Of a DNA stretch of 44,135 bases, positions 2,975 to 43,411 are shown one piece after another. A program made the translations under genes and the position numbers. This DNA is from Candidatus Micrarchaeota archaeon (GTDB lineage Archaea; Micrarchaeota; Micrarchaeia; Anstonellales; JAGGTN01). The notes beneath the pieces were generated by a model. It had not been told where the DNA came from. It saw nothing but the letters and a program-made list of their open reading frames with translations, and did not search any database. Location of the stretch: assembly GCA_021163645.1 (NCBI GenBank), contig JAGGTN010000029.1:1-44135 (forward strand), written 5' to 3'. Each line of letters begins with the position of its first letter. Positions within the stretch are counted from its first letter, which is position 1.

Positions 2975-4762
2975 TTATATCTTAGTGTTAAACATCATAC
3001 TTACTATAAGCACGAATTCTAACACAATGATTACTATGAGAATGGTAATATAAATTTTCATTTTATTTATTTCTTCCCTGCATGATCCAGAACTTGAGTT
3101 ATGATATTTAGGGTTAACATTTACAGTTTTATTTCCTCCATTTCCTTTCTCCATTAACTCATGCTCAGCGTCATCAAAATATTCTTCCATCTTATCAGCA
3201 ATACATTTTATTCTATATGAAGATTCGTAATCTTTGGTTTTATATAAATAAACAGCTTGAGAATGATAAATATTCGGCCATGTATGATTATATCTAACAT
3301 CTTCTATTCCATTCAACATTGCTTTAACTTGAATCGGGGATTTATCAAATGTATCTACATAACTTTTCTGAACACCATAAGCAAATGCATAATCATACAA
3401 AGCAACTAGATAATGTTTATTCTTTGCCGCTTCATCAGCCATTGTAATATAATTGACAGTATCAGTAGAAGCTTCTGGAAATCTAAGAATATACTGCTTT
3501 GTTTCCTGTGATTTTACAGAGACAAGATCGGATAATTTACTTTCATCTATCAATTGCCCTTTTCCTTTGAATGAGATTAATTTTGATACATAACACCATT
3601 CTTCAGCGTTTAATATATTATACAAAGGATCGAACTTTGCTTCTTCAACATTATTTTCATAAAGATTAACATCAATATCCTTAATCTTATTCTTTGCCCA
3701 ATCTATCCTTACCTCAGAACCAGTTATCCATTCCCAATTATCTGTTCTTTTCTCATATAGTTCAAAATTATTAAGACATTCTTTCGCTTCACTAATTTTC
3801 TGTGATAGATTTATCGGTCCAGCATCAATAGTTTCAATAAATTTCAGGTCAAGTAATCGATTAAATATATTATTAGCAGCAGTATATGAATAACCTCTGT
3901 TTATGAGCTTTTTCTGATTATCAACATCATCTAACATATCCTTGACGATCTCTTTCTCATGTGAATCATCACTCAACTGATTATAATAGTTCTCTGCTTC
4001 TGAATTAAACATATCAACTATTTCATATGACATATTATCAAAGCGAGGAATATGATATTCATAATCATCAACTATCTCAGTAGGTTCAATAATAGATTCT
4101 ATTTTTGAATACTTTGAAAGTGATTCATTACTAAGATTTGATGTTGCAATATAAAACGCATCACTCAATGTATCAACATTTATTATCTTAATATCATACT
4201 TATCCATAAGATTATTAGCGATGATATAATCCTTTGTACCAGATAATTTTGTTAATAATACCTTTTTTCCATTTCGAGATGAAGCCATTACCTTCTCTAT
4301 CAATCCACCTATCTTGCCCACTTTTCCTGACTGGCTTAATGTTCCTGTAACTATCACATTATCATTCAGTTTTTTACCAGAAAATAACGATGCAAATTCA
4401 AGACCCATAGCCAATCCCGCACTTGGACCGTCAATATATCTGCTTCCAGATGCTCCGATTATCCCGATACGATAATCACATTCAGAATAGTCAAATCCAG
4501 TAAAACTCGCTGCTGCGTCCAAACTATTTTCTATAGAATTCTGTGTACTGATCCCAACTGGAGGGGGTATCTGAATATATATATCCCCTTTACCAGGTTC
4601 TATATCGAATTCTAATGTTACAAGACCCCCATTTGATTCGCTCACAACAGCTGGAACTTCAATTTCGCCATGAGTGGGCTGGCATGATGAATAAATGATT
4701 CCTGAAAAGAATACACTAATGATTAGGATAACAAAATAAAATTTAAAGAATCTATTTTTCAT
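2975..4762 (-). CDS. Membrane-associated or secreted Lon-like S16 peptidase-domain protein without an AAA+ module
   Basis: Lon proteolytic-domain motifs IDGPSAGLAMGL (Ser) and GKIGGLIEKVMAS (Lys). N-terminal signal-like segment FVILIISVFFSGIIYSSC and C-terminal hydrophobic anchor IYITILIVIIVLEFVLIVSMMF. The long middle region has no recognised family. Confidence 0.75.
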   Translation of the reverse strand: MKNRFFKFYFVILIISVFFSGIIYSSCQPTHGEIEVPAVVSESNGGLVTLEFDIEPGKGDIYIQIPPPVGISTQNSIENSLDAAASFTGFDYSECDYRIGIIGASGSRYIDGPSAGLAMGLEFASLFSGKKLNDNVIVTGTLSQSGKVGKIGGLIEKVMASSRNGKKVLLTKLSGTKDYIIANNLMDKYDIKIINVDTLSDAFYIATSNLSNESLSKYSKIESIIEPTEIVDDYEYHIPRFDNMSYEIVDMFNSEAENYYNQLSDDSHEKEIVKDMLDDVDNQKKLINRGYSYTAANNIFNRLLDLKFIETIDAGPINLSQKISEAKECLNNFELYEKRTDNWEWITGSEVRIDWAKNKIKDIDVNLYENNVEEAKFDPLYNILNAEEWCYVSKLISFKGKGQLIDESKLSDLVSVKSQETKQYILRFPEASTDTVNYITMADEAAKNKHYLVALYDYAFAYGVQKSYVDTFDKSPIQVKAMLNGIEDVRYNHTWPNIYHSQAVYLYKTKDYESSYRIKCIADKMEEYFDDAEHELMEKGNGGNKTVNVNPKYHNSSSGSCREEINKMKIYITILIVIIVLEFVLIVSMMFNTKI

Positions 4763-16067: not shown

Positions 16068-16175
16068 TTACCTTCATGCCCCGGTCAGACAACCTTTTTT
16101 GGTTGTAACCCGTGGCATTCGTTACCTTCATGCCCCGGTCAGACAACCTTTTTTGGTTGTAACCCGTGGCATTCG
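16068..16175 (+). repeat. Two identical 54-nt tandem units, plus a 17-nt third partial copy running into tRNA-Asn
   Basis: Unit ttaccttcatgccccggtcagacaaccttttttggttgtaacccgtggcattcg occurs at 16068-16121 and 16122-16175, 100% identical. Each unit contains the tRNA leader and 5-prime end (tcatGCCCCGGT) and folds as a hairpin. Confidence 0.9.
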
Positions 16176-16185
16176 TTCCACTCAT

Positions 16186-16356
16186 GCCCCGGTAGCTTAG
16201 TGGTAGAGCGTTCGGCTGTTATGCACATTCTTTCATAAGGAAAGAACCTGCGCTAAGAAATAGAAGTTTTTTATGGAAATAGAAGTACTGGGAGAAAACT
16301 AGGGTCCTTTCAGTCCCGAAACCGAAAGGTCGGCGGTTCGAATCCGCCCCGGGGCG
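16186..16356 (+). tRNA. tRNA-Asn (anticodon GTT) with a 99-nt intron at the canonical 37/38 position
   Basis: Hand-folded. Acceptor GCCCCGG/CCGGGGC, D-arm GCTT-AGTGGTA-GAGC, anticodon stem TTCGG/CCGAA with loop CT-GTT-A|A. Variable AGGTC, T-arm GGCGG-TTCGAAT-CCGCC, discriminator G. Exons 16186-16221 and 16321-16356; intron 16222-16320. No encoded CCA. Confidence 0.8.
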
Positions 16357-17263: not shown

Positions 17264-18835
17264 ATGAATGTCAAGGGTGCTTCAGATGGCAAGAGAGAGT
17301 TTTATATAACTACTCCAATTTATTACCCAAATGCCCTACCGCATGTTGGTACGGCCTATACGACGATAATTGCTGATTTTGTTGCAAGATTTAAACGTTC
17401 TCAGGGTTATGATGTTTTTTTCCTTACTGGTAATGATGAACACGGAATGAAAATTGCTAGGGTTGCTGAGAAAAATGGGATGACTCCACAAGAATTTGTT
17501 GATGGGTTGGCAGAGAAATTCAAAGATGTATGGAAGCAATTGGGAATAACCTATAATCGTTTTATAAGAACAACTGATAAAGATCATGAGAAGACAGTGA
17601 AGGAAATCATTATAAAATCAAACAAAAACGGGGACATATACAAAGGATATTACGAAGGATATTATTGTGTTGATTGTGAACAATATTATACTGAAAAAGA
17701 TTTAGTTGATGGTAAATGTCCAATTCATAACAAGCCATTGGAGATATTGAGTATGGAATCTTATTTCTTTAAATTAAGTGCATATCAAGACAGGTTATTA
17801 AAATTTTATAAAGATAATAAAGAATTTTTACCTTCCAAGTATAAGCAAGAGGTTATTAATAGGGTAAAGAAAGGATTGAGGGATATAAGTATATCCAGGC
17901 CTAAGAGGTATCTTACATGGGGGATTGAATTTCCACTTGATCAGAATCATGTGACTTATGTTTGGTTTGATGCTCTCACCAATTACTTAACAGGAATAGG
18001 TTATTCATGTAGCGAGAATGAAAAGAATAAAGAAATGTTTAACAGATATTGGCCCGCTGATATTCATTTCATTGGTAAAGATATTACCTGGTTTCATTGC
18101 GTGATTTGGCCTGCGATACTGATGTCAGTAGGTTTGCCATTACCAAAACGAGTAGGGATAAATGGTTTTCTTAGCGTTGATGGCCAGAAGATAAGCAAAT
18201 CTTTAGGCAATGCTATTGATCCTGTATCTATTTGTGATTATTATGAAACAATTGATGTTCTGAGATATTATCTACTTCGTGAGATCCCTTTTGGTAGTGA
18301 TGGAGATTTTTCACGTTCCTCATTAAAAGAAAGGTATAATAATGAGCTTGTAAACGAATACAGTAATCTTGTAAATAGGGTGTTTGTCATGTTCTCAAAA
18401 TATTGTTCTAAATCTCATAATGGCAATATTGATTATGATGACAGTTTATGGCAAGGTACTGATGAGATAATCAAATCTTACATCAAACATATTGATCGAC
18501 TTGAATTTAAACAAGCCATAGATACGATCTGGCAATTAATATCTAAAGCTAATTCTTACATAAATGAAAAAGAACCTTGGAAGCTTGCGAAAGGAGATGA
18601 TGGATCAGGAAATGGATTAGAAAAAGCAGCTAAGGTCATTTATTCATTAATAGAATATCTCGGGATAATAAATAGTCTATTTGCTCCAATCCTTCCATCA
18701 TCTTCTGAAAAACTTGCTAAACATCTTGGTTTAAAAGAGCCTATTCGTATATCAGAATTGAAACAGTTTGGTAAGAATATTGATATTGATAGGGTGAATC
18801 ATAAGGGTCTTATTTTATATAGAAGAAAAGAATAG
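17264..18835 (+). CDS. metG: Methionyl-tRNA synthetase
   Basis: HIGH-region variant YPNALPHVGTAYT, KMSKS variant KISKSLGN, zinc knuckle CVDCEQ..CPIH. 523 aa with no C-terminal Trbp111-like extension. Confidence 0.95.
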   Translation: MNVKGASDGKREFYITTPIYYPNALPHVGTAYTTIIADFVARFKRSQGYDVFFLTGNDEHGMKIARVAEKNGMTPQEFVDGLAEKFKDVWKQLGITYNRFIRTTDKDHEKTVKEIIIKSNKNGDIYKGYYEGYYCVDCEQYYTEKDLVDGKCPIHNKPLEILSMESYFFKLSAYQDRLLKFYKDNKEFLPSKYKQEVINRVKKGLRDISISRPKRYLTWGIEFPLDQNHVTYVWFDALTNYLTGIGYSCSENEKNKEMFNRYWPADIHFIGKDITWFHCVIWPAILMSVGLPLPKRVGINGFLSVDGQKISKSLGNAIDPVSICDYYETIDVLRYYLLREIPFGSDGDFSRSSLKERYNNELVNEYSNLVNRVFVMFSKYCSKSHNGNIDYDDSLWQGTDEIIKSYIKHIDRLEFKQAIDTIWQLISKANSYINEKEPWKLAKGDDGSGNGLEKAAKVIYSLIEYLGIINSLFAPILPSSSEKLAKHLGLKEPIRISELKQFGKNIDIDRVNHKGLILYRRKE

Positions 18836-32566: not shown

Positions 32567-34342
32567 TCAAGCTGTCCTCTTAAACTTCTTTTCCATCTCG
32601 CCCCAACCTATTCTTATTATAGTTGGTCTTCCATGCGGACATGTAAATGGGTTATCACATTTTGAAAGGTCATTTAACAAATCTCTCATTTCAGTTATGG
32701 TCATTTCATGACCTGCCTTGATAGAAGCTCTACAAGATTTGGTGGCTATGCGATTATCCAATATCTCTTCAATTAATTTGATACTATTATCCCTTTTCTC
32801 ATCATAAAAAGAGATGATTTCATCAAGAACATCTTTAAAGAGCTTGATAGGAAGAGCATTATTGAATATGACGGGTATTGTATTGATTCTGTATGCATTA
32901 GGACCGTATTCTTCAATATCATACCCATACCGTTTCAATAATCTGATATGTTTTATTATTGCTAGTTGTTCTGTTTTGTTTGCCTCGAATATGACTGGTG
33001 ATAATAATTTTTGAGTTGATAAGGCATTATTCTTCAACTGTTTCATGAACCTCTCGTAATTAACCCTTTCCTGACTGGCATGCTGGTCTATGATGAAAAG
33101 TCCGTCAATATTCTCAGCTAGGATGTATGTTTTATTAACCTGTCCGATTATTTTTAACTCTGGGATTTGATGTTTGATATGGCTAAAAGGACCAGGTGAA
33201 TGAGAATGATTAGAATAAGATGGTTTTATCATCTGTTTTTCCGAATGAGTAATTGGAGTCAATGGTAATATTTTCTGGTTTGTTTTATCTGGCTTGTATG
33301 CTTTTTGCGGTTTTGATAGACTGTCTTCAGCATCGACGGTCACTGTCAGGTCATTCTTGCTCAATGAACTGTTTACTGATTGTTCTATCATACCTATTAG
33401 TTCGTTTTCATTCTTGAATTTAATCTTTCTCTTGGATGGATGGATGTTTACATCAATATCCTCTGGTGGTAAGTATAGTTTTAATATGATCACTGGATGC
33501 CTATTGAGGAATAATTTATTCTTATACCCTTTATAGACAGCATCGATAACTTCTTTTGATATTACGTATCTATCATTAACGAAAATAACTTGATAATTTT
33601 TTGTTTTCTTTGTATAACCAATTTTGGATATATATCCATTAATTTTCACATTACCAAAATGTGCATCAATAGGAATAAGATTCTCTGTAATCTCCCTACC
33701 AAATACATAGTATATCTTATCAAGTAAGTTGTTTGATTTAGGTGAATTAAAAACCTCTTTTCCATCTCTGTATAGATGAAATGATATGTTAGGGTTTGCC
33801 AATGAATAATTCCTTATCAAATGGATGATATGAGAAAATTCAACTTCCTCAGATTTCATAAATTTCAATCTAGCCGGGAACCTGGAGAATATATTCCTGA
33901 CAGTGATAACTGTTCCATCATTTATAGATACATTAACATCATTTTTGGGATTACCATTTTCATCATACTCCACTCTAACTCCAGTACTATTCCCAGATGT
34001 TTTTGATGCAACCGTAATATCTGCAATAGCCGATATACTAGCCAATGCCTCACCTCTAAATCCTAGTGATGTTATGTTAAAAAGGTCATCAATTGATTTT
34101 ATCTTGCTTGTTGAGTGTCGTTTCACGCATACCATTAAGTCATCATGGTTCATTCCTTTACCATTATCGATAACTTTTATCAATCGTTTACCACCATGCT
34201 CAACAAAAACCTTAATATCATCGGCGTTTGCATCAATTGAATTTTCAATGAGTTCTTTGACCACAGAAACTGGTCGTTCTATTACTTCTCCAGCAGCTAT
34301 CTTTTCAACCAGTTCTTTTGGAAGATGAATGATATTTCCCAA
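32567..34342 (-). CDS. mutL: DNA mismatch repair protein MutL (endonuclease-type)
   Basis: GHKL N-terminus IAAGEVIERPVSVVKELIENSIDA and DNGKGM. C-terminal endonuclease motif DQHASQERVNYE (DQHAxxExxxxE) and FTCPHGRP. TTG start 5 nt after GGTGA. Confidence 0.93.
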   Translation of the reverse strand: MGNIIHLPKELVEKIAAGEVIERPVSVVKELIENSIDANADDIKVFVEHGGKRLIKVIDNGKGMNHDDLMVCVKRHSTSKIKSIDDLFNITSLGFRGEALASISAIADITVASKTSGNSTGVRVEYDENGNPKNDVNVSINDGTVITVRNIFSRFPARLKFMKSEEVEFSHIIHLIRNYSLANPNISFHLYRDGKEVFNSPKSNNLLDKIYYVFGREITENLIPIDAHFGNVKINGYISKIGYTKKTKNYQVIFVNDRYVISKEVIDAVYKGYKNKLFLNRHPVIILKLYLPPEDIDVNIHPSKRKIKFKNENELIGMIEQSVNSSLSKNDLTVTVDAEDSLSKPQKAYKPDKTNQKILPLTPITHSEKQMIKPSYSNHSHSPGPFSHIKHQIPELKIIGQVNKTYILAENIDGLFIIDQHASQERVNYERFMKQLKNNALSTQKLLSPVIFEANKTEQLAIIKHIRLLKRYGYDIEEYGPNAYRINTIPVIFNNALPIKLFKDVLDEIISFYDEKRDNSIKLIEEILDNRIATKSCRASIKAGHEMTITEMRDLLNDLSKCDNPFTCPHGRPTIIRIGWGEMEKKFKRTA

Positions 34343-34388: not shown

Positions 34389-35036
34389 TTACTTTCCAGT
34401 TAATGATTCTACTAAACCATCTACGAGTTTGAGCTGGTTCTGCATTAATTTCTCTTCGAGAATATCGCAATTGACTCCTATACTTTCTAATTTTTCTTTC
34501 ATTCTTTTTCTTATCCCACACATAAGCAATACACTCTTCATACCGGATGTGGAACCGATGAATAATAGATAGAATTTAGATAATTGATTGTAATCAAGTT
34601 CCCCTAAATCACGAATGATGGATTGGGTTGATTGTAGAAGTTTATCAGGTATATAATTATCCGATGGATTGTTTGGTAATCTATGTATTAGATATTCCAT
34701 TTCTTTCTGGGTGGCTAGTTTTAGTTTAAGCATTAATCCTGCGAAATACTTAATATGATTATCTTTTATGAAGTTTAGGTTTATTTCTTTACATTGTTTC
34801 ATAATATTGTTTGCATCTTGTTCTATTCGGTTTAATTCACTGTTTGATAAATGAGCATTGTATGATGATATGCTTGATTCATCAGAGAATATGAACACAG
34901 AATTCAAATCAATGTTAGTATCCATCGATTCGCTACGAATAAATACATCAATCTTTTCGATCAACGGAGAAATGTTTGTGAAAGATACCAATTCTGTTAC
35001 AGTTTTATGCAATTGTTCTTTTTTTTGTAATACCAT
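34389..35036 (-). CDS. Hypothetical protein (orphan), last gene of the giant-protein cluster
   Basis: The ATG at 35036 is preceded by GAGGTGA; the track start is 35054. 215 aa with no recognised motif. Confidence 0.55.
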   Translation of the reverse strand: MVLQKKEQLHKTVTELVSFTNISPLIEKIDVFIRSESMDTNIDLNSVFIFSDESSISSYNAHLSNSELNRIEQDANNIMKQCKEINLNFIKDNHIKYFAGLMLKLKLATQKEMEYLIHRLPNNPSDNYIPDKLLQSTQSIIRDLGELDYNQLSKFYLLFIGSTSGMKSVLLMCGIRKRMKEKLESIGVNCDILEEKLMQNQLKLVDGLVESLTGK

Positions 35037-35096
35037 AATTATCACCTCAACCATCTAGTTATTATCCAACTATAACCAAATCCATTTATAATATAA

Positions 35097-35225: not shown

Positions 35226-38200
35226 TTATTTAAATGATTGTTTTCCTTCATTATATAATCTCTCCATTTCTTCTGAGCCAAGCATTGATGATATGTCCTT
35301 AAATAATTTTTTTTCATTACTCCTTTTTGCTTTGCCCGTGAATAAATCATTTAAATTTTTAGGTTCGCCCTTCTTTTCGATATCAATACGGTTTATTCCT
35401 ATCTTATAGTATTCTTTATTATATTTAAAGAATATTCCGTTTTTGGATACGCATGCAAAACCCTTACTTGAATTTATGTTGCCGAATATTTTTGTATTAG
35501 GGTCATTAATGATGGTTTCAAATGTTTTATCATTAATATGCTCTGCATATATCCGGAAGTTCCTAAGATGATCGTCATCTATACTTAACTGTTTCTGTGC
35601 TTCTGTATTATAACCTGATTTGTATATTATTGCGCGTAATATATTCTTTTCCAGTATTGAATAGTTTCCTGATAATTTAAGTTGTATAGATTCGTCAACG
35701 CCGTTTATTACTGGAATACTATGTACTAAGCCATCTATTAAATCGACCCCCGGCGCTTCCTTAATAATATCATACCTATAAATATTACCTTCCTTTGTCA
35801 ATATACTAATAGTTATCGAGAATATAGCATCGGAATTGGCACCAGATTCTTCCAATTGTTGGTATTTCTTAGATGGATCATGGAATATCTCAGGATAATC
35901 ACTTAATGATTTTCGTAAATAGAAAGCACTTTTATTCCCATCAGTATCTATTATTGTTATCTTATAAACATTGGTCTTAGTGTCCAATTTTGACATTTCA
36001 CCAGATTCGCTTACTTTACTTATTGAGATTTTAGATAGTTTTTTGAAATTTACTGGTAATTTAAACTTATCAATGACAGATGATATTAGAGTGTTAAAAT
36101 TGTTACCCATTTCTGATGGTATGGCAATATCACTAGGGAGGTATGCTGATTCAATCGTTGATACAAAATATGATTCATTAAAAGGTATTAATGTTATCTT
36201 ATCATAATCATTAAAATCAAATCCGTAAGTTATTTCGATTTTTTTACTTTGCAATATCGTATCAATACGGTTAGATATTACTGGGTCCTCTAATAGATTG
36301 TTCATTTTGAGTTTGTAATTGTCAATATCTATCACTCCATCTGTCTTGGAATACCAATATTTACCATTATACGTAATATCTTTTGGTAGCCCCAACAAGT
36401 TTAATGTTTCGATTAGTTCTCTGGGACGTTCTTCTGGTGGGATATGCTTACATGAGAATAGAATTCGTTGAATCATTTTGTTTTTATGGATCAGGTCAGA
36501 GCTTAATTTTCTGTATTGTGGAGACCAATCAATAACTGATACACTGCTTCCCATATTATAATAATTTGTCAAGACAGTAAGTCCATCAGAGATATTCTGT
36601 TTGAGAGATCTATCACTATCCAATCCTGACTTAACAATCATCTTTATGTCACCGGTTATACCATTAACCAATGAATTATTAAGAGCGTTATTGATGCGTA
36701 TGTTAAATTCTCTAACATTTGCGTTAGCGGGTAACAATACGATGAAGTTCTTTTTCTTCGTGCGATATACACCTGCGAATTCGCCAAGTTCATCTTTTGG
36801 CGTTCCCTTTTCTATATTCCTGAATTCATTAAATAATATCCTACCAATATTTCCTATGAACACATCTGTTTGTGCCATGCTGGTGTTATCGTTCATTATC
36901 TTAACAGTACGCCTGCCAGTGAATGGCCCGCCGTTAAGTTGATAATCTACGATTAACATTTTGTATTTGCCTGAATTTATCTCTTGTGTAATCTCATCAC
37001 TGTTCTGGATAAGCCAATCTTCTGATAACACACCTTCGATATCTGCGTTTGATTGTTTGATCCCTGATGATGTTGATGTTTTTTTCATTATTTTTGAATT
37101 TACATCTTCATAGATTTCACTCTTCAATATGTTGCCATTTACTGATGACAGCGTGGTACCATTTGATAGGTCAGTGCTTCGCCTAGCCATTGTTTGCGCC
37201 ATGACATTCCCCTCAATGCGTGAGTATGTTAATTCCAATATCGATAATTCTCTCTTATCTAAGTTAGCTTCAACAATACGGTTCTTTTTAGTCGCTGAAA
37301 CAATATCTTGCGCGCGGTTTCTATCCATTCCATTATTAACCAGTTCAGTAACAAGTAGTTTATCACCATTTTCCACCATACGTATATCTTTATCATATAA
37401 TTTTTCAAACCTGAGTAGTATTTCGGTGTTCCTTTCCATTGTTTCTCCAATATCATTATCTATCTTCATGTTTTCATATACGCTAAATGTAAGTACGCCC
37501 GATCTTTTTTCCGGTGATGGGTAATCTAATTTATTGAATAAGAGACCTTCTCCTTCTATGCTTTTTATATACTCCTTTACTTTCTCATTAGCCGTAACAA
37601 TAGCTTTTTCATATAGTTTAGGATCATATTTACCAAAAACCATGACAAGGAATTCTTCTGTTCCGCCTTCAACTACAACATTACGTCCTAGTTTTTCTTT
37701 TAGAGTATTGTTGTATATCTCCATAACATTGTCCATGACATCTGGTGTGTAGAAATCATTAAGTTTGCCGAAATTAACTCCATCCGTTAATATCACACTC
37801 GCATCAAAATGGTCAAGTTTGATTCCAAACTGTTCCCATTTCATATTGAATTCATGCATGTTGTCTATAAGATCATTAAGCTTCTGGGCAATTGATACCC
37901 TACCAGTTGTTTTGTCATCAAAGTGTATGTATCCTGGCGTCGTGATTGCTTTGAAATAATCATCTATTAATTCGTTCCAATACGCTGGAGGTATGTGATT
38001 TTCCGTAATCATTTCGCCTATGTTATCAATGGCTTGTTTAGGTGGTATTATTATTGCATGCTCAGGTTGATTTTTAAACCATTGTTTTGCTTGGTTAGTA
38101 ATATTGATATTCACATTCGGTTGTGTGCTAAGTAATGGTTTTGTGTCCTTACCCATGGCTTCGCCTATAGTTTTCCCTGCGGGTAATGATTGTTTTAAAT

Positions 38201-40142
38201 TCGGGTTGGATAATTTTAAATCAGGTAATCTTATTGAGCGATAATTGCCAGATATCTTGACCGAATAATCTTTTGGGATAGGAATAAATTTACTGTGTTT
38301 ATCCCCGATTGAGAACCTTATTGTGTCAAATGAAGAGCCGTTTTCAAGTACTACCTTACGTAACTCCACTGTCATTTTCTTGCCTTTATATTTTGGGTTG
38401 GTGATATTGATTCCAAGTTTTGTTCTCTCTCCTGTTTTTATCTTTTTTACCTCTATGTTAACATCTGTTTTATTTGAAGGATTATGAATAAAATTAGCTA
38501 TCCCCAATCCGATAAATATTGATGACATGACGATGTTGGATATATCTTCGGGTGTGAATGTAGTTAATGAGCCATTTGCAAATTCAGTCATAAGATTATA
38601 ACTCATCCCACTGACTAGGACGCCTGCAGAAATGTCTTTTAATCTGCCTAAGGCATTGGCTAAAGCTCCCTGCGCTACAAGTTCTTCTCCTATTCCTGTT
38701 ACCATCATTATTGGGAGCGAAGCATTAGCCACAGCTCCCAACCAGTTTTTCTGTTTAATATTTTCAATGGTTCCTATTACTCCTTCTGCTCCGAAATATG
38801 CTTTTACTACCCCTGATCCTAACCTGTTTAACATTGTAGCTGCTTTAATTGATGAGGCAGAGCCAGAAATAGGTAATGATAGTAAGAATAATATCGTTGG
38901 TCCAGCTGTAAATCCTAACCCTGGAACCTTCTGGCAGTACAATGTGTTTGATATTGCATGAAAATCCAATCGTGTATATTCACTTGATCGTTCGCCGAGT
39001 TTATTTGTTATGTCAGAATAATATAATTTGTTTTGGGTCTTGAATATTGGTTTGTAGTCAAATACATTGAATCGTTTAATTAGTTCTGGGAATGTCTGGG
39101 GTGCTAATGGTGAATGGTAAATATCACCAGGCATTTTGGAATAATTATTGGTTTTATATTTCATTTCTTTATTAAATGTCTTGAAATCGTTTGTTTTTTT
39201 GAGAATGCTGACTGTTTGCTTGAGATTATATAAGACCTGTTGAACTGTTAAGTCTGCTTTATGTATCTTATCATTGATTTTTTTAATAGAATTCTCTGTG
39301 AAAGGTGATTCTGTTTCATCTTTGGATAAAACAACTACATAATCATCAGTCATACTGCCCCATACTTTTCTGAATGGTGAAAATTTCTGTATCTCTCCTG
39401 TTTTTGGGTCTTTGTATGTTTTTGCTTGATAGCTGTTTAATGGTACTATCGTGTAACGCTCATTATTAAGATACTTCTTGTTCAATGTTTCTTCATCTTT
39501 CTCGTTCTCAACATATAATACATTTTCTATTCTATTTATTTTTATATTCTCGGTGACGATTTCCATTCTATTTATTATTTCTGCTGAGGTGTATGCCCAT
39601 GTTTTGCTTAGGACATAGAATGACATGAAGTCAGTTATATTATTTATTTTATCTTTGTTTAATAACTCATTTTCTAATTTTTCTTTGAGTTGTTCTAGTG
39701 TATTCAAGTCCATGTTTGTGAGTATGTTTTTAAATTTATCTAAGTTTTTATCTGCTTCTAAAGTTAAATTCTCTATGTCTATATTTGTCTTAGATACTTC
39801 TTGATTTTGAATTATCGGAACTTCGATTTCCTGTCCATGTGTGCTTGTGATATCTGTATCTGCAGTAACAAAATTTGGTTTGATGAGTATCGGTGTTGAT
39901 AAGGATAATATCTTATTAACCTCTATGTACATATCAGTAGTTTTCATATTGGCCAAATTTTTTATCTGAGACCTGGAACCGTATTTTTTGATGAATGAAG
40001 ATAACTGTTTTCTGATTTCTGGTTCATGTTTCTTCTCAATGGTTATTTTATTTCCTTCTTTTGTCATGTATCTCTGTGCATTGTCTATGAGAAGTAATCC
40101 TTCTATAAAGTTTGCGTCTCTGGTTTTAGTCTTTACTGACAT
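35226..40142 (-). CDS. Giant multidomain protein, 1638 aa
   Basis: Uninterrupted 4.9-kb ORF. Residues ~406-552 are a hydrophobic Gly/Ala-rich block. Residues ~775-895 are GGDEF-like with GGTEEF (nt 37650-37667, verified by hand translation). Residues ~1060-1175 are a second, degenerate GGDEF-like region. Residues ~1390-1600 carry a kinase-like motif series. Confidence 0.85.
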   Translation of the reverse strand: MSVKTKTRDANFIEGLLLIDNAQRYMTKEGNKITIEKKHEPEIRKQLSSFIKKYGSRSQIKNLANMKTTDMYIEVNKILSLSTPILIKPNFVTADTDITSTHGQEIEVPIIQNQEVSKTNIDIENLTLEADKNLDKFKNILTNMDLNTLEQLKEKLENELLNKDKINNITDFMSFYVLSKTWAYTSAEIINRMEIVTENIKINRIENVLYVENEKDEETLNKKYLNNERYTIVPLNSYQAKTYKDPKTGEIQKFSPFRKVWGSMTDDYVVVLSKDETESPFTENSIKKINDKIHKADLTVQQVLYNLKQTVSILKKTNDFKTFNKEMKYKTNNYSKMPGDIYHSPLAPQTFPELIKRFNVFDYKPIFKTQNKLYYSDITNKLGERSSEYTRLDFHAISNTLYCQKVPGLGFTAGPTILFLLSLPISGSASSIKAATMLNRLGSGVVKAYFGAEGVIGTIENIKQKNWLGAVANASLPIMMVTGIGEELVAQGALANALGRLKDISAGVLVSGMSYNLMTEFANGSLTTFTPEDISNIVMSSIFIGLGIANFIHNPSNKTDVNIEVKKIKTGERTKLGINITNPKYKGKKMTVELRKVVLENGSSFDTIRFSIGDKHSKFIPIPKDYSVKISGNYRSIRLPDLKLSNPNLKQSLPAGKTIGEAMGKDTKPLLSTQPNVNINITNQAKQWFKNQPEHAIIIPPKQAIDNIGEMITENHIPPAYWNELIDDYFKAITTPGYIHFDDKTTGRVSIAQKLNDLIDNMHEFNMKWEQFGIKLDHFDASVILTDGVNFGKLNDFYTPDVMDNVMEIYNNTLKEKLGRNVVVEGGTEEFLVMVFGKYDPKLYEKAIVTANEKVKEYIKSIEGEGLLFNKLDYPSPEKRSGVLTFSVYENMKIDNDIGETMERNTEILLRFEKLYDKDIRMVENGDKLLVTELVNNGMDRNRAQDIVSATKKNRIVEANLDKRELSILELTYSRIEGNVMAQTMARRSTDLSNGTTLSSVNGNILKSEIYEDVNSKIMKKTSTSSGIKQSNADIEGVLSEDWLIQNSDEITQEINSGKYKMLIVDYQLNGGPFTGRRTVKIMNDNTSMAQTDVFIGNIGRILFNEFRNIEKGTPKDELGEFAGVYRTKKKNFIVLLPANANVREFNIRINNALNNSLVNGITGDIKMIVKSGLDSDRSLKQNISDGLTVLTNYYNMGSSVSVIDWSPQYRKLSSDLIHKNKMIQRILFSCKHIPPEERPRELIETLNLLGLPKDITYNGKYWYSKTDGVIDIDNYKLKMNNLLEDPVISNRIDTILQSKKIEITYGFDFNDYDKITLIPFNESYFVSTIESAYLPSDIAIPSEMGNNFNTLISSVIDKFKLPVNFKKLSKISISKVSESGEMSKLDTKTNVYKITIIDTDGNKSAFYLRKSLSDYPEIFHDPSKKYQQLEESGANSDAIFSITISILTKEGNIYRYDIIKEAPGVDLIDGLVHSIPVINGVDESIQLKLSGNYSILEKNILRAIIYKSGYNTEAQKQLSIDDDHLRNFRIYAEHINDKTFETIINDPNTKIFGNINSSKGFACVSKNGIFFKYNKEYYKIGINRIDIEKKGEPKNLNDLFTGKAKRSNEKKLFKDISSMLGSEEMERLYNEGKQSFK

Positions 40143-40202: not shown

Positions 40203-41072
40203 TTATAATGGAATGTAGATGTCATCAGCATCAGGGTAGAGTTTTTGGTTGCTTATTCTTGTAATGGGTTTTCCTTCTGATGTCATTACTGTTTCTAACG
40301 CATGCTTACTATTTAGCAACCTCTCCATTAATTCTAGGTTTTCTTTCATTCGTTTCCAATCAATGGCTTCTTTTAATGAATTCCATTTCTCTTTTTTATC
40401 ATTCATTATTTTATCCTTAATATCAGTTAGATATTTCAAGGCAATAGCTCTATCAAATCGTCCGAGTATTCTTACCAGATCTAGCCGTAATGGATCATCG
40501 TTAATTATCATATTATAAAATCTACGTGCCAGTCGTTCATCATCAGCGTTTTCATCTACACATTTTTTAAACATGAAAAATCTCAGCACATAACCTACCT
40601 TGATTTTTCTATTATTCATCTGACTGAAAAAATCTAATAATTCTTTCTTGCCCTTGTTTGTTGTTGCACCTCTAACCATTACCATACCTAATATCACAGT
40701 AATCGTATTATAGGTTAGATTCGCTACTTCTATTTTATCGATTTGCTTAGCAGCCAATTCGTCTCCTTTTGTGATATATTCATGCCTAAGCTTATCCTTA
40801 GCAGATGAGATTAACTTCTCCATCTCAATACTATATTTTTCGAGAGCTGCTCGTGCCTCTTTGGTTAAATCTGTGCAATTTATCTTATCCAATTCTTTCA
40901 ATAACCAATTAGTATTTGGAGAAGCATAGAATAATAGACTTGATTTGCCTAATTCCAATATCTTTTTAAGTTCTTTATCTTTTATGGTAGCTATTACTTT
41001 AGAATATATCATAAGCCGGTTTTCTTTTGTATCAATCATATTTATTAATCGTTTCTCTATCTCAGTTAACAT
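40203..41072 (-). CDS. Hypothetical protein (orphan, helix-rich composition)
   Basis: 289-aa ORF ending 60 nt upstream of the giant gene start. No recognised motif. Confidence 0.6.
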   Translation of the reverse strand: MLTEIEKRLINMIDTKENRLMIYSKVIATIKDKELKKILELGKSSLLFYASPNTNWLLKELDKINCTDLTKEARAALEKYSIEMEKLISSAKDKLRHEYITKGDELAAKQIDKIEVANLTYNTITVILGMVMVRGATTNKGKKELLDFFSQMNNRKIKVGYVLRFFMFKKCVDENADDERLARRFYNMIINDDPLRLDLVRILGRFDRAIALKYLTDIKDKIMNDKKEKWNSLKEAIDWKRMKENLELMERLLNSKHALETVMTSEGKPITRISNQKLYPDADDIYIPL

Positions 41073-42541: not shown

Positions 42542-43411
42542 GTGATGAGAAAACCTATTATGTCAAATCTTTTGTTTGGATATGAAGGGTATGATTCAAA
42601 GGATGAGCATAATGAGAATGAGTATGATTCAGGTGATTCAAATATTTCAAAAGAGTTTTCTAAAAATGAGTGCTCTGTTGATATGAATCAATCTATAAGA
42701 GAGAAGAAAGCAGAACTGGTTCATGAACTTCGATACGGAGATGGTAAGGAGAGGGTGGATGCAGCATCCCGATTAATTGAGATGTTGGACACTGATGTCA
42801 AGAATGAGACTACCTGGCAGTTAATCAAAGAATTAACCGCTCTGCTTGTAGAAGATTGGGCGATTGATGAGCTTAAGAGGGTTACGAAAAATATTGAGAA
42901 AAATAATAGGCATAAGAAGAATTGGGGTGAGATGCAGGCTTATCTCGTAGGAAAAATGTCTTATGAGATATTTAAGCGATTGGAAAAAGAGCAATCCGAC
43001 AGAGAGATTTTGATTATCGGTGAGTTATTAAAACGTTCTGGTTTACTGCTTATCAAACTTGTGACCAAGCCTGTTAATTGGATTTATGAACAGATATCTT
43101 CGCTTTTTAATAAAAATAAGGAAAATAAACCTGATGCTAAAGAGATCATTAACCAGATAAAAGAGGATCCTAAACAGGCATGGGCTAGAATAATGAAAAT
43201 GAATTTGGATGATACACTTACCTTATTTGAACAGGTGGATAGTATCTTTTCTGAGGAAGGGATTAACATCCCAGAGCCGGTTCAAGATAGAGATGAAGTT
43301 ATAGCAGAGCTCAGCAGTAAGATTAGCGAATTGTGTGCATCAGCACCTCAACACGTGAAAGAAAAAATAGATGTTGCATCATTAACAGAAAAGCTGGATA
43401 CAATAGCATGA
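42542..43411 (+). CDS. Hypothetical protein, divergent from the cluster
   Basis: 289-aa ORF with GTG at 42542 and ATG at 42545. Acidic N-terminus, then a helical body with a possible HEAT-like segment (ELRYGDGKERVDAASRLIEM). An orphan. Confidence 0.55.
   Translation: MMRKPIMSNLLFGYEGYDSKDEHNENEYDSGDSNISKEFSKNECSVDMNQSIREKKAELVHELRYGDGKERVDAASRLIEMLDTDVKNETTWQLIKELTALLVEDWAIDELKRVTKNIEKNNRHKKNWGEMQAYLVGKMSYEIFKRLEKEQSDREILIIGELLKRSGLLLIKLVTKPVNWIYEQISSLFNKNKENKPDAKEIINQIKEDPKQAWARIMKMNLDDTLTLFEQVDSIFSEEGINIPEPVQDRDEVIAELSSKISELCASAPQHVKEKIDVASLTEKLDTIA

Follow-up and report, generated by a model that had tools for sequence, protein, structure and literature searches.

Two highly divergent GGDEF-family domains in tandem in a giant, putatively membrane-associated protein of a DPANN-like archaeon

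Signalling by GGDEF domains and cyclic di-GMP (c-di-GMP) is considered a bacterial trait in all essentials, and Archaea have almost no GGDEF domains (PMC5847659, PMC10249747). Archaeal response regulators lack GGDEF outputs, and the only archaeal GGDEF domains reported are a single one in Methanocella and, with uncertain provenance, inactivated ones in 'Ca. Micrarchaeum' (PMC5847659). In the bacterial enzyme PleD the metal-binding Asp D327 and the guanine-binding N335 and D344 are reported to be essential (PMC7288161). Here we analysed 44,135 nucleotides of DNA (hereafter the window) from a Candidatus Micrarchaeota archaeon (contig JAGGTN010000029.1), where the list of open reading frames (ORFs) and their translations gives as the largest ORF 35226-40142 (-), which encodes the whole of a 1638-residue protein, hereafter the giant protein. 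A preliminary description of this DNA, made from the letters alone, had proposed that the giant protein contains two GGDEF-like palm domains, one with the signature GGTEEF and one degenerate, and had called such domains rare in Archaea, with which the literature agrees. Both peptide strings that it quoted are present in the translation where it had placed them (KLDHFD is residues 775-780, nt 37803-37820, and VKSGLD is residues 1170-1175, nt 36618-36635), and the domain limits proved to be slightly wider than it had given: domain A, which keeps the acidic catalytic pair, covers residues ~741-925 (37368-37922 (-)), and domain B, which is catalytically degenerate, covers residues ~1034-1206 (36525-37043 (-)). 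Our results show both regions to be homologues of GGDEF domains, with a resemblance that exceeds chance. They are best named highly divergent GGDEF-family domains, not annotated diguanylate cyclases, because they are homologous to the family yet fall below its curated thresholds and depart from its signature.

Much of this evidence draws on one relative. An exhaustive phmmer search with residues 439-1638 against 1.84 billion representatives found three proteins (P0010, P0011 and P0012), among which P0010 (1272 aa, E = 2.7e-64) is the only homologue with both GGDEF-like domains in the ~15 billion proteins covered. P0010 is collinear with the giant protein over residues 87-1259 at 27-29% identity, with ~24% identity within domain A, and its contig looks archaeal, carrying a geranylgeranyl reductase and an archaeal-type phosphoglycerate mutase.

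Domain A was assigned to the GGDEF family because three independent profile libraries and a profile-profile comparison pointed to it. TIGR00254 (NCBIfam) matched residues 776-841 over profile positions 32-98 (E = 1.5e-4, 21.5 bits), PF00990 (Pfam) matched domain A with an E of 0.015 (15.4-15.5 bits), and a two-sequence profile of the giant protein and P0010, run against the PDB, returned the Thermotoga maritima diguanylate cyclases 4urq, 4urg and 4urs as its top three entries (E 0.014-0.025), with more GGDEF entries ranking below them; a single-sequence PDB search with the two-domain region gave no match. The profile-profile comparison used an independent GGDEF reference, for which the last 180 residues of eight proteins of E. 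coli K-12 were aligned (DgcZ, DgcF, DgcJ, DgcP, DgcC, DgcT, DgcN and CdgI). Against the resulting profile the two-sequence profile of domain A scored P = 4.9e-5 in hhalign, and a global hhalign alignment was collinear with the GGDEF profile over its full length. Thus the resemblance of the first region to the GGDEF pattern, for which the preliminary description had pointed to PleD-type domains, is backed by sub-threshold NCBIfam, Pfam and PDB-profile matches as well as by profile-profile comparison, and since significant GGDEF matches exist the region is not one without a palm-family match.

An AlphaFold2 (AF2) model of the two-domain region arranged the elements of domain A in the order a0-b1-a1-a2-b2-b3-a3-b4-a4, at a low predicted local distance difference test (pLDDT) score. 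Foldseek with this two-domain model (pLDDT 42) listed GGDEF structures at probabilities of 0.9-0.99, with E values of 1e-3 to 3e-2, template modelling (TM) scores of 0.35-0.52 and 12-18% identity, which do not tell which of the two domains was aligned. A reading of the A-B interface from the same model was dropped, its confidence being too low.

Domain B, by comparison, was assigned to the family because of its fold. No profile library reported a match to domain B of the giant protein itself, and a two-sequence profile of domain B found no GGDEF among PDB sequences, these being found by the fold search alone. A template-free AF2 model of residues 1033-1206, built from the two-sequence alignment, reached a pLDDT of 72.6 and a predicted TM score of 0.77, with the element order a0-b1-(hairpin insert)-a1-a2-b2-b3-a3-b4-a4. 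When this model was compared with the PDB by Foldseek, ranks 1-44 were all GGDEF domains (probability 1.00, E 7e-5 to 4e-3, TM 0.5-0.64), including PleD, WspR, SiaD, DgcZ, DosC, FimX (3hva) and TM1788, over 169-186 aligned columns at 8-16% identity to the solved domains; GTP cyclohydrolase III first appeared at rank 45 (TM 0.42/0.32). Sequence comparison agreed with the fold: hhalign aligned domain B with the E. coli GGDEF profile at P = 3.8e-4 over 76 columns, the GGDEF-specific N-terminal element D.LTGL.NRR aligned with a conserved D..G.LSED.L that starts domain B, and in P0010 the PF00990 match falls on the equivalent of domain B (residues 1050-1131, profile positions 45-128, E = 0.0066, 16.7 bits), so that the weak Pfam matches sit on different domains in the two homologues, A in the giant protein and B in P0010. 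The earlier proposal that the second region repeats the GGDEF scaffold with TKKKNF in place of the signature was therefore borne out by the model and its top 44 matches. The expected beta-alpha-alpha-beta-beta-alpha-beta core was predicted in both regions (for domain A at low pLDDT), and the predicted structure of domain B superposed on solved GGDEF domains, PleD among them.

These structural searches also bear on whether the two domains belong to another family of palm nucleotidyl transferases (Cas10/mCpol, class III cyclases, GTP cyclohydrolase III or Thg1) and not to GGDEF proper, which we consider very improbable. Both Cas10 and GTP cyclohydrolase III typically have palm domains in tandem, and the Foldseek list for the low-confidence two-domain model also includes Cas10 (9g9g_A, 4doz), Thg1 (probability 0.54-0.60) and GTP cyclohydrolase III (2qv6). 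Yet the Cas10 matches have probabilities of 0.16-0.60 and a root-mean-square deviation above 23 Å, the 44 best structural matches of domain B precede the first GTP cyclohydrolase III, and the element aligned with the start of domain B is specific to GGDEF. In Pfam and NCBIfam GGDEF was the sole palm family to appear (maximum E of 10 for the giant protein and its fragments, and of 1 for P0010), with no Pfam or NCBIfam match to class III nucleotidyl cyclases, GTP cyclohydrolase III or Thg1, and PADLOC reported no palm family at a maximum E of 1. The window holds no CRISPR array or cas gene. Membership of Cas10 was thus rejected by profile (Pfam and PADLOC, maximum E of 1-10), by structure and by gene content; of the arrangement that the preliminary description had likened to Cas10, one intact palm domain beside a degenerate one stands as an analogy, while the membership itself does not.

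We also weighed whether an AT-rich, low-complexity giant ORF could have matched the motifs by chance, to which we assign a negligible probability. All of the hidden Markov model (HMM) matches are sub-threshold and the hhalign probabilities are only 36-72%, as such a reading would expect. However, when 170-column windows of the full alignment of the giant protein with P0010 were slid against the E. coli GGDEF profile in hhalign, P fell below 1e-3 only in those covering residues 710-935 (3-5e-5) and residues 1004-1244 (3.5e-5 to 3.5e-4), two independent peaks exactly on the two regions; scan windows partly overlapping either region gave P of 0.0024-0.046, and the 21 that were clear of both gave P of at least 0.07. 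As a null we shuffled the columns of each region alignment 200 times, and none of the 200 shuffles reached the real score for either region: domain A scored 35.6 against 12.8 +/- 2.6 (maximum 21.3; z 8.9) and domain B 35.1 against 13.3 +/- 2.8 (maximum 23.5; z 7.9). Together with the weak Pfam matches on different domains of the two homologues, and with a template-free model of domain B that retrieves GGDEF structures only as its best matches, the sliding scan, Foldseek and the shuffles effectively refute chance.

Domains A and B have no similarity to each other detectable by BLASTP or hhalign, which led us to reject a recent internal duplication; judged by sequence, they appear to be old copies that diverged independently.

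Which residues each domain has kept was read from the hhalign register against the invariant E. coli columns, with residue roles taken from PleD (PMC7288161). In domain A the block DGVNFGKLNDFYTPDVMD (residues 787-804, 37731-37784 (-)) contains D787, N795 and D804, all invariant in P0010, at the positions of the Mg2+ ligand D327 and the guanine-binding N335 and D344 of PleD. The signature GGTEEF (residues 826-831, 37650-37667 (-); GMGEEF in P0010) is placed so that G827-T828-E829-E830-F831 line up with G-G-[DE]-E-F, which puts E829 at E370 (Mg2+ and alpha-phosphate), E830 at E371 and F831 at the signature Phe, while K914 corresponds, in a low-confidence alignment, to the phosphate-binding K442. 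Lost from domain A are the invariant Lys (K332 in PleD; G792 here and Ala in P0010) and the invariant Arg two residues before GG (R366; E825 here and Ala in P0010), both of them invariant in 8/8 E. coli sequences, and the Gly of the S-x-G strand was not seen. Domain A had been called active-looking: the acidic pair and the Phe are indeed kept, whereas the GG pair is non-canonical (G-T, or M-G in P0010) and the invariant Arg is replaced.

In domain B the losses fall on other positions. Here D1066, N1084 and D1093 stand at D327, N335 and D344, K1081 at K332, R1127 at R366 and G1173 at the Gly of the S-x-G strand, and the signature Phe is F1133; TKKKNF (residues 1128-1133, 36744-36761 (-); IHNKNF in P0010) replaces Y-G-G-E-E-F, with K-K (H-N in P0010) for GG, K1131 for E370 and N1132 for E371, and no residue of domain B was assigned to K442. 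Hence neither domain reads GG[DE]EF, the giant protein and P0010 having G-T-E-E-F and M-G-E-E-F in domain A, and K-K-K-N-F and H-N-K-N-F in domain B. Every retained residue of both domains is identical in P0010. No RxxD I-site was found in either domain by sequence inspection in the hhalign register. The two domains are thus complementary, A having the acids without the Arg and Lys and B having the Arg and Lys without the acids, and with the exception of the catalytic acids domain B retains more of the family-invariant positions than domain A.

The segment QLNGGPFTGRRTVK of domain B (residues 1068-1081, 36900-36941 (-)) holds a 10-residue insert, LNGGPFTGRR (residues 1069-1078; a 10-residue gap in hhalign), which comes after the metal Asp D1066 and before the FK..ND helix. 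The phosphate-binding loop lies at this position, and in PleD the beta and gamma phosphates are bound there by backbone amides. The Q, L, GG, F, G, RR, T, V and K of the segment are invariant in P0010, and no other 30-residue stretch of the protein is as well conserved as residues 1071-1100, with 53% identity versus ~28% overall.

The reading that we consider moderately likely is that of a membrane-associated protein with a tandem pair of divergent GGDEF domains, in which A would be a nucleotidyl-transfer half-site and B a nucleotide-binding partner. Domain A could bind GTP-Mg, and possibly carry out nucleotidyl transfer, because the Mg2+, guanine and phosphate ligands are kept at ~24% identity; its activity is uncertain because the GG pair, the invariant Arg and the Lys are lost. 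Since domain B lacks the metal-binding Glu, it would be unable to activate a triphosphate bound to it and would serve instead as a nucleotide-binding partner. That it binds nucleotide is most likely, since it is strongly constrained, and a ligand-binding function rather than decay is suggested by the fact that the most conserved 30-residue stretch lies there.

Two versions of this arrangement can be drawn. In the first, two A domains across a protein dimer would make a cyclic dinucleotide, with B acting as an allosteric nucleotide sensor like the degenerate GGDEF domains of PdeA, FimX and LapD; that of Caulobacter crescentus PdeA, a GTP sensor, provides a precedent (PMC7288161). In the second, B would pair with A in cis and hold the acceptor nucleotide, forming one composite active site in the manner of Cas10 or adenylyl cyclase C1/C2, and the expected product would be a linear dinucleotide such as pppGpG and not c-di-GMP. 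The data do not separate the two, and we slightly favour the first. The complementary pattern of kept residues points to the second in a suggestive, unproven way, and we regard as improbable the fuller form of that idea, in which A and B make up an intramolecular GGDEF pseudo-heterodimer whose composite site produces not c-di-GMP but another nucleotide messenger, such as linear pppGpG or a mixed dinucleotide.

Several points weigh against a nucleotidyl-transfer half-site paired with a nucleotide-binding domain, and most of them favour instead the main alternative, which we find possible but doubtful, namely that both domains are GGDEF-derived pseudoenzymes serving as ligand-binding, structural or protein-interaction modules of a lineage-specific giant membrane protein. 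Every HMM score is below the curated cut-offs: 21.5 bits against 37.4 for TIGR00254, and 15.5 bits (domain A) and 16.7 bits (domain B of P0010) against 23.8 for PF00990. Domain A is modelled only as part of the two-domain AF2 model, whose pLDDT is 42. It lacks the canonical GG, at two positions that differ even between the homologues, as well as the equivalents of R366 and K332, and given the missing Arg and Lys it may be inactive; domain B, for its part, has KKKNF. No gene for an EAL, HD-GYP or PilZ partner was seen within the 44-kb window, and c-di-GMP has never been detected in Archaea, where signalling by it is not known (PMC10249747). The family sample consists of two sequences, which makes the conservation statistics thin, and the membrane topology, and hence the placement of the domains in the cytoplasm, is derived from hydropathy only. 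Against the pseudoenzyme alternative stands the conservation of D787, N795, D804, E829, E830, F831 and K914 at ~24% identity, exactly the set of metal, base and phosphate ligands, which is hard to explain without nucleotide-Mg binding. In addition AGDEF and SGDEF, variants of GG(D/E)EF at the first position, are known to be active.

Residues ~87-400 (38943-39884 (-)), aligned collinearly with P0010, have no Pfam or NCBIfam family match. They are followed by a Gly/Ala-rich hydrophobic region at residues ~405-555 (38478-38930 (-)), in which a Kyte-Doolittle scan of both proteins gave three to four putative membrane segments (408-426, 467-485, 534-552 and possibly 504-518); those of P0010 lie at matching positions, upstream of both GGDEF-like domains. 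The giant protein would thus be membrane-associated, with its GGDEF-like middle part presumably in the cytoplasm. Within the hydrophobic region the block TPEDxSNIxMSxxFIGxG ranks among the best-conserved stretches between the giant protein and P0010, and by eye we likened it to APEDVERLVSNGILIGICF in P0012. This suggests a membrane module common to the small protein group of the giant protein, P0010 and P0012. Domains A and B are joined by a linker of ~110 residues (~926-1033, 37044-37367 (-)), predicted with low confidence to be helical from the AF2 secondary structure, in which the sliding profile windows gave no GGDEF signal. No recognisable sensor domain (REC, PAS or GAF) was found in the giant protein.

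The C-terminal domain (residues ~1349-1634, 35241-36098 (-)) was delimited by the exhaustive phmmer search and alignment. These ~290 residues are all that P0011 (381 aa) and P0012 (801 aa), otherwise different proteins, share with the giant protein, and they are missing from P0010. Their invariant motifs are KTNVY, EAxG..L (EAPGxDL in the giant protein), IPVIN(G), DDDHLxNF (IDDDHLRNF) and RIDxExxGxP (INRIDIE). Neither Pfam, NCBIfam nor the PDB sequences gave a match to this domain, and a profile of the domain run against the PDB was also empty. By eye, its D-x4-N and later I-D-x-E recall kinase-like catalytic loops.

Beyond these three relatives the giant protein is nearly an orphan. Word-indexed searches with the whole protein, and with the alignment of the giant protein and P0010, found only the giant protein itself, and no further relatives were found in GTDB genomes, JGI metagenome contigs or viral contigs. 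We rejected 20 metagenome matches to a degenerate DNA pattern for GG.F.GRRTVK, all of which were due to chance (G/F regions of DnaJ and non-coding frames). The 90% cluster of the giant protein holds nine near-identical sequences from several samples; at least eight contigs of the same species, also from several samples, carry the whole gene between unchanged neighbours, and the strain DNAs differ by one to two codons.

No conserved neighbourhood was seen between the locus of the giant protein and that of P0010, bar a marginal likeness of the ORFs upstream, and the surroundings of the P0011 and P0012 genes gave no further indication. Directly upstream of the giant gene lies a 289-aa orphan ORF, 40203-41072 (-), which is collinear over ~100 residues with the 277-aa ORF upstream of P0010 (L001:8958-9791; pairwise E = 0.011). 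Neither has a family match, and the upstream ORF may be a conserved partner gene. Between the giant gene and a complete MutL homologue located just downstream of it (32567-34342 (-)) there is a 221-aa orphan ORF, 34389-35054 (-), which weakly matches a PADLOC model of a type II restriction enzyme (E = 5.9e-4), and the window showed no MutS. The neighbours of the giant ORF are housekeeping or orphan genes, with no cas or defence genes near it, and a defence-system reading is not supported, since PADLOC produced no meaningful match for the giant protein or the genes around it.

The contig is archaeal and the region ordinary chromosome, which makes the label of a DPANN-like archaeon reasonable. 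It carries an archaeal-type leucyl-tRNA synthetase (TIGR00395, leuS_arch; 823 bits, above the cut-off), Topo VI A and B, an archaeal/eukaryotic-type tryptophanyl-tRNA synthetase and a type III-like RuBisCO, in line with the archaeal host proposed in the preliminary description, along with a KaiC/RadB-like ATPase, ScpA/ScpB, uracil-DNA glycosylase, MutL, thioredoxin and its reductase and glutamate dehydrogenase, at a GC content of ~33%. Taxonomic placement by the methionyl-tRNA synthetase (17264-18835 (+)) failed, this gene being bacterial-like, and the archaeal origin was set by leuS_arch, Topo VI, the tryptophanyl-tRNA synthetase and RuBisCO. The enzyme is closest to those of Bacillota (43-47% identity in more than 20 genomes), with one match in Woesearchaeota, and is probably a horizontally acquired synthetase of bacterial type.

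Other features of the window were recorded in passing. A tRNA at 16186-16356 (+), missed by ARAGORN, scores 57.5 bits in Rfam over 171 nt, which implies an intron of ~100 nt. Immediately upstream of it (16068-16193) a 54-bp unit is repeated 2.3 times at 95% match, each copy holding CATGCCCCGGT, identical to the leader and first tRNA bases, as if the 5' end of the tRNA had been duplicated together with its upstream region. All matches of the 289-aa ORF at 42542-43411 (+) are weak and sub-threshold: one is with the C-terminal domain of XPA (E = 0.0013) and the others are with three candidate-defence models of PADLOC, PDC-M07B (E 3.6e-4 to 1.5e-3). Of the 595-aa protein encoded at 2975-4762 (-) only residues 98-201, near the N-terminus, could be recognised, as the C-terminal proteolytic domain of a Lon protease; no AAA+ module was detected in it.

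What is new here is a tandem pair of sub-threshold GGDEF domains in a chromosomal gene of a DPANN-like archaeon. Curated models miss both of them, so censuses based on Pfam or TIGRFAM thresholds may under-count GGDEF domains in Archaea. The presence in one chain of a domain that keeps the acids and of a conserved 'dead' domain bears on GGDEF-type messengers in Archaea and on pseudo-heterodimers formed in cis. If the composite-site version were true, the giant protein would be a new nucleotide-signalling enzyme in the DPANN, a lineage thought to be without GGDEF signalling; if the domains were non-catalytic, this would be ordinary domain exaptation in a lineage-specific giant protein.

Compared with known systems, the pair of one intact and one degenerate palm domain is likewise found in Cas10 (Csm1/Cmr2) and in the C1/C2 pseudo-heterodimers of mammalian adenylyl cyclase, which makes a single composite site conceivable. 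The GGDD palm of Cas10 is the C-terminal one, whereas the giant protein has the opposite order, with its intact domain on the N-terminal side, and unlike Cas10 the giant protein has no HD or Zn-finger domain, so the comparison is an analogy only. GTP cyclohydrolase III (Methanocaldococcus jannaschii MJ0145, 2qv6) is archaeal and has tandem GGDEF/cyclase-like domains that bind GTP and metal, but it matches far less well than the canonical GGDEF domains do, has no Pfam match here, and is a small soluble enzyme as opposed to a giant membrane protein.

Closest are the canonical GGDEF domains (PleD, WspR, TM1788 and DgcZ), whose fold and element order are matched by domain B in Foldseek (TM 0.55-0.64). 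The pair has the metal Asp and the FK..ND helix in the same register as they do, and likewise the guanine-binding Asn/Asp, the beta2-beta3 hairpin signature and, at the C-terminal end, the AD.ALY.AK helix, domain A sharing in addition the E-E-F of GG[DE]EF. It differs from them in its scores below the cut-offs, in the loss of GG, Arg and Lys from domain A, in having neither an RxxD I-site nor a recognisable sensor, in the tandem arrangement of two domains in one chain and in its archaeal host. Domain B resembles the degenerate GGDEF sensors (PdeA, FimX, LapD and CdgI) in its fold, its destroyed signature, its kept base and metal residues and its strong conservation, and the GGDEF domain of FimX (3hva) is among its best structural matches. 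Those sensors, however, are bacterial and are either paired with EAL or act as c-di-GMP receptors, whereas the partner of domain B is a GGDEF-like domain, and domain B is further set apart from them by the conserved Gly/Arg insert of 10 residues in its phosphate loop, which is unique to it.

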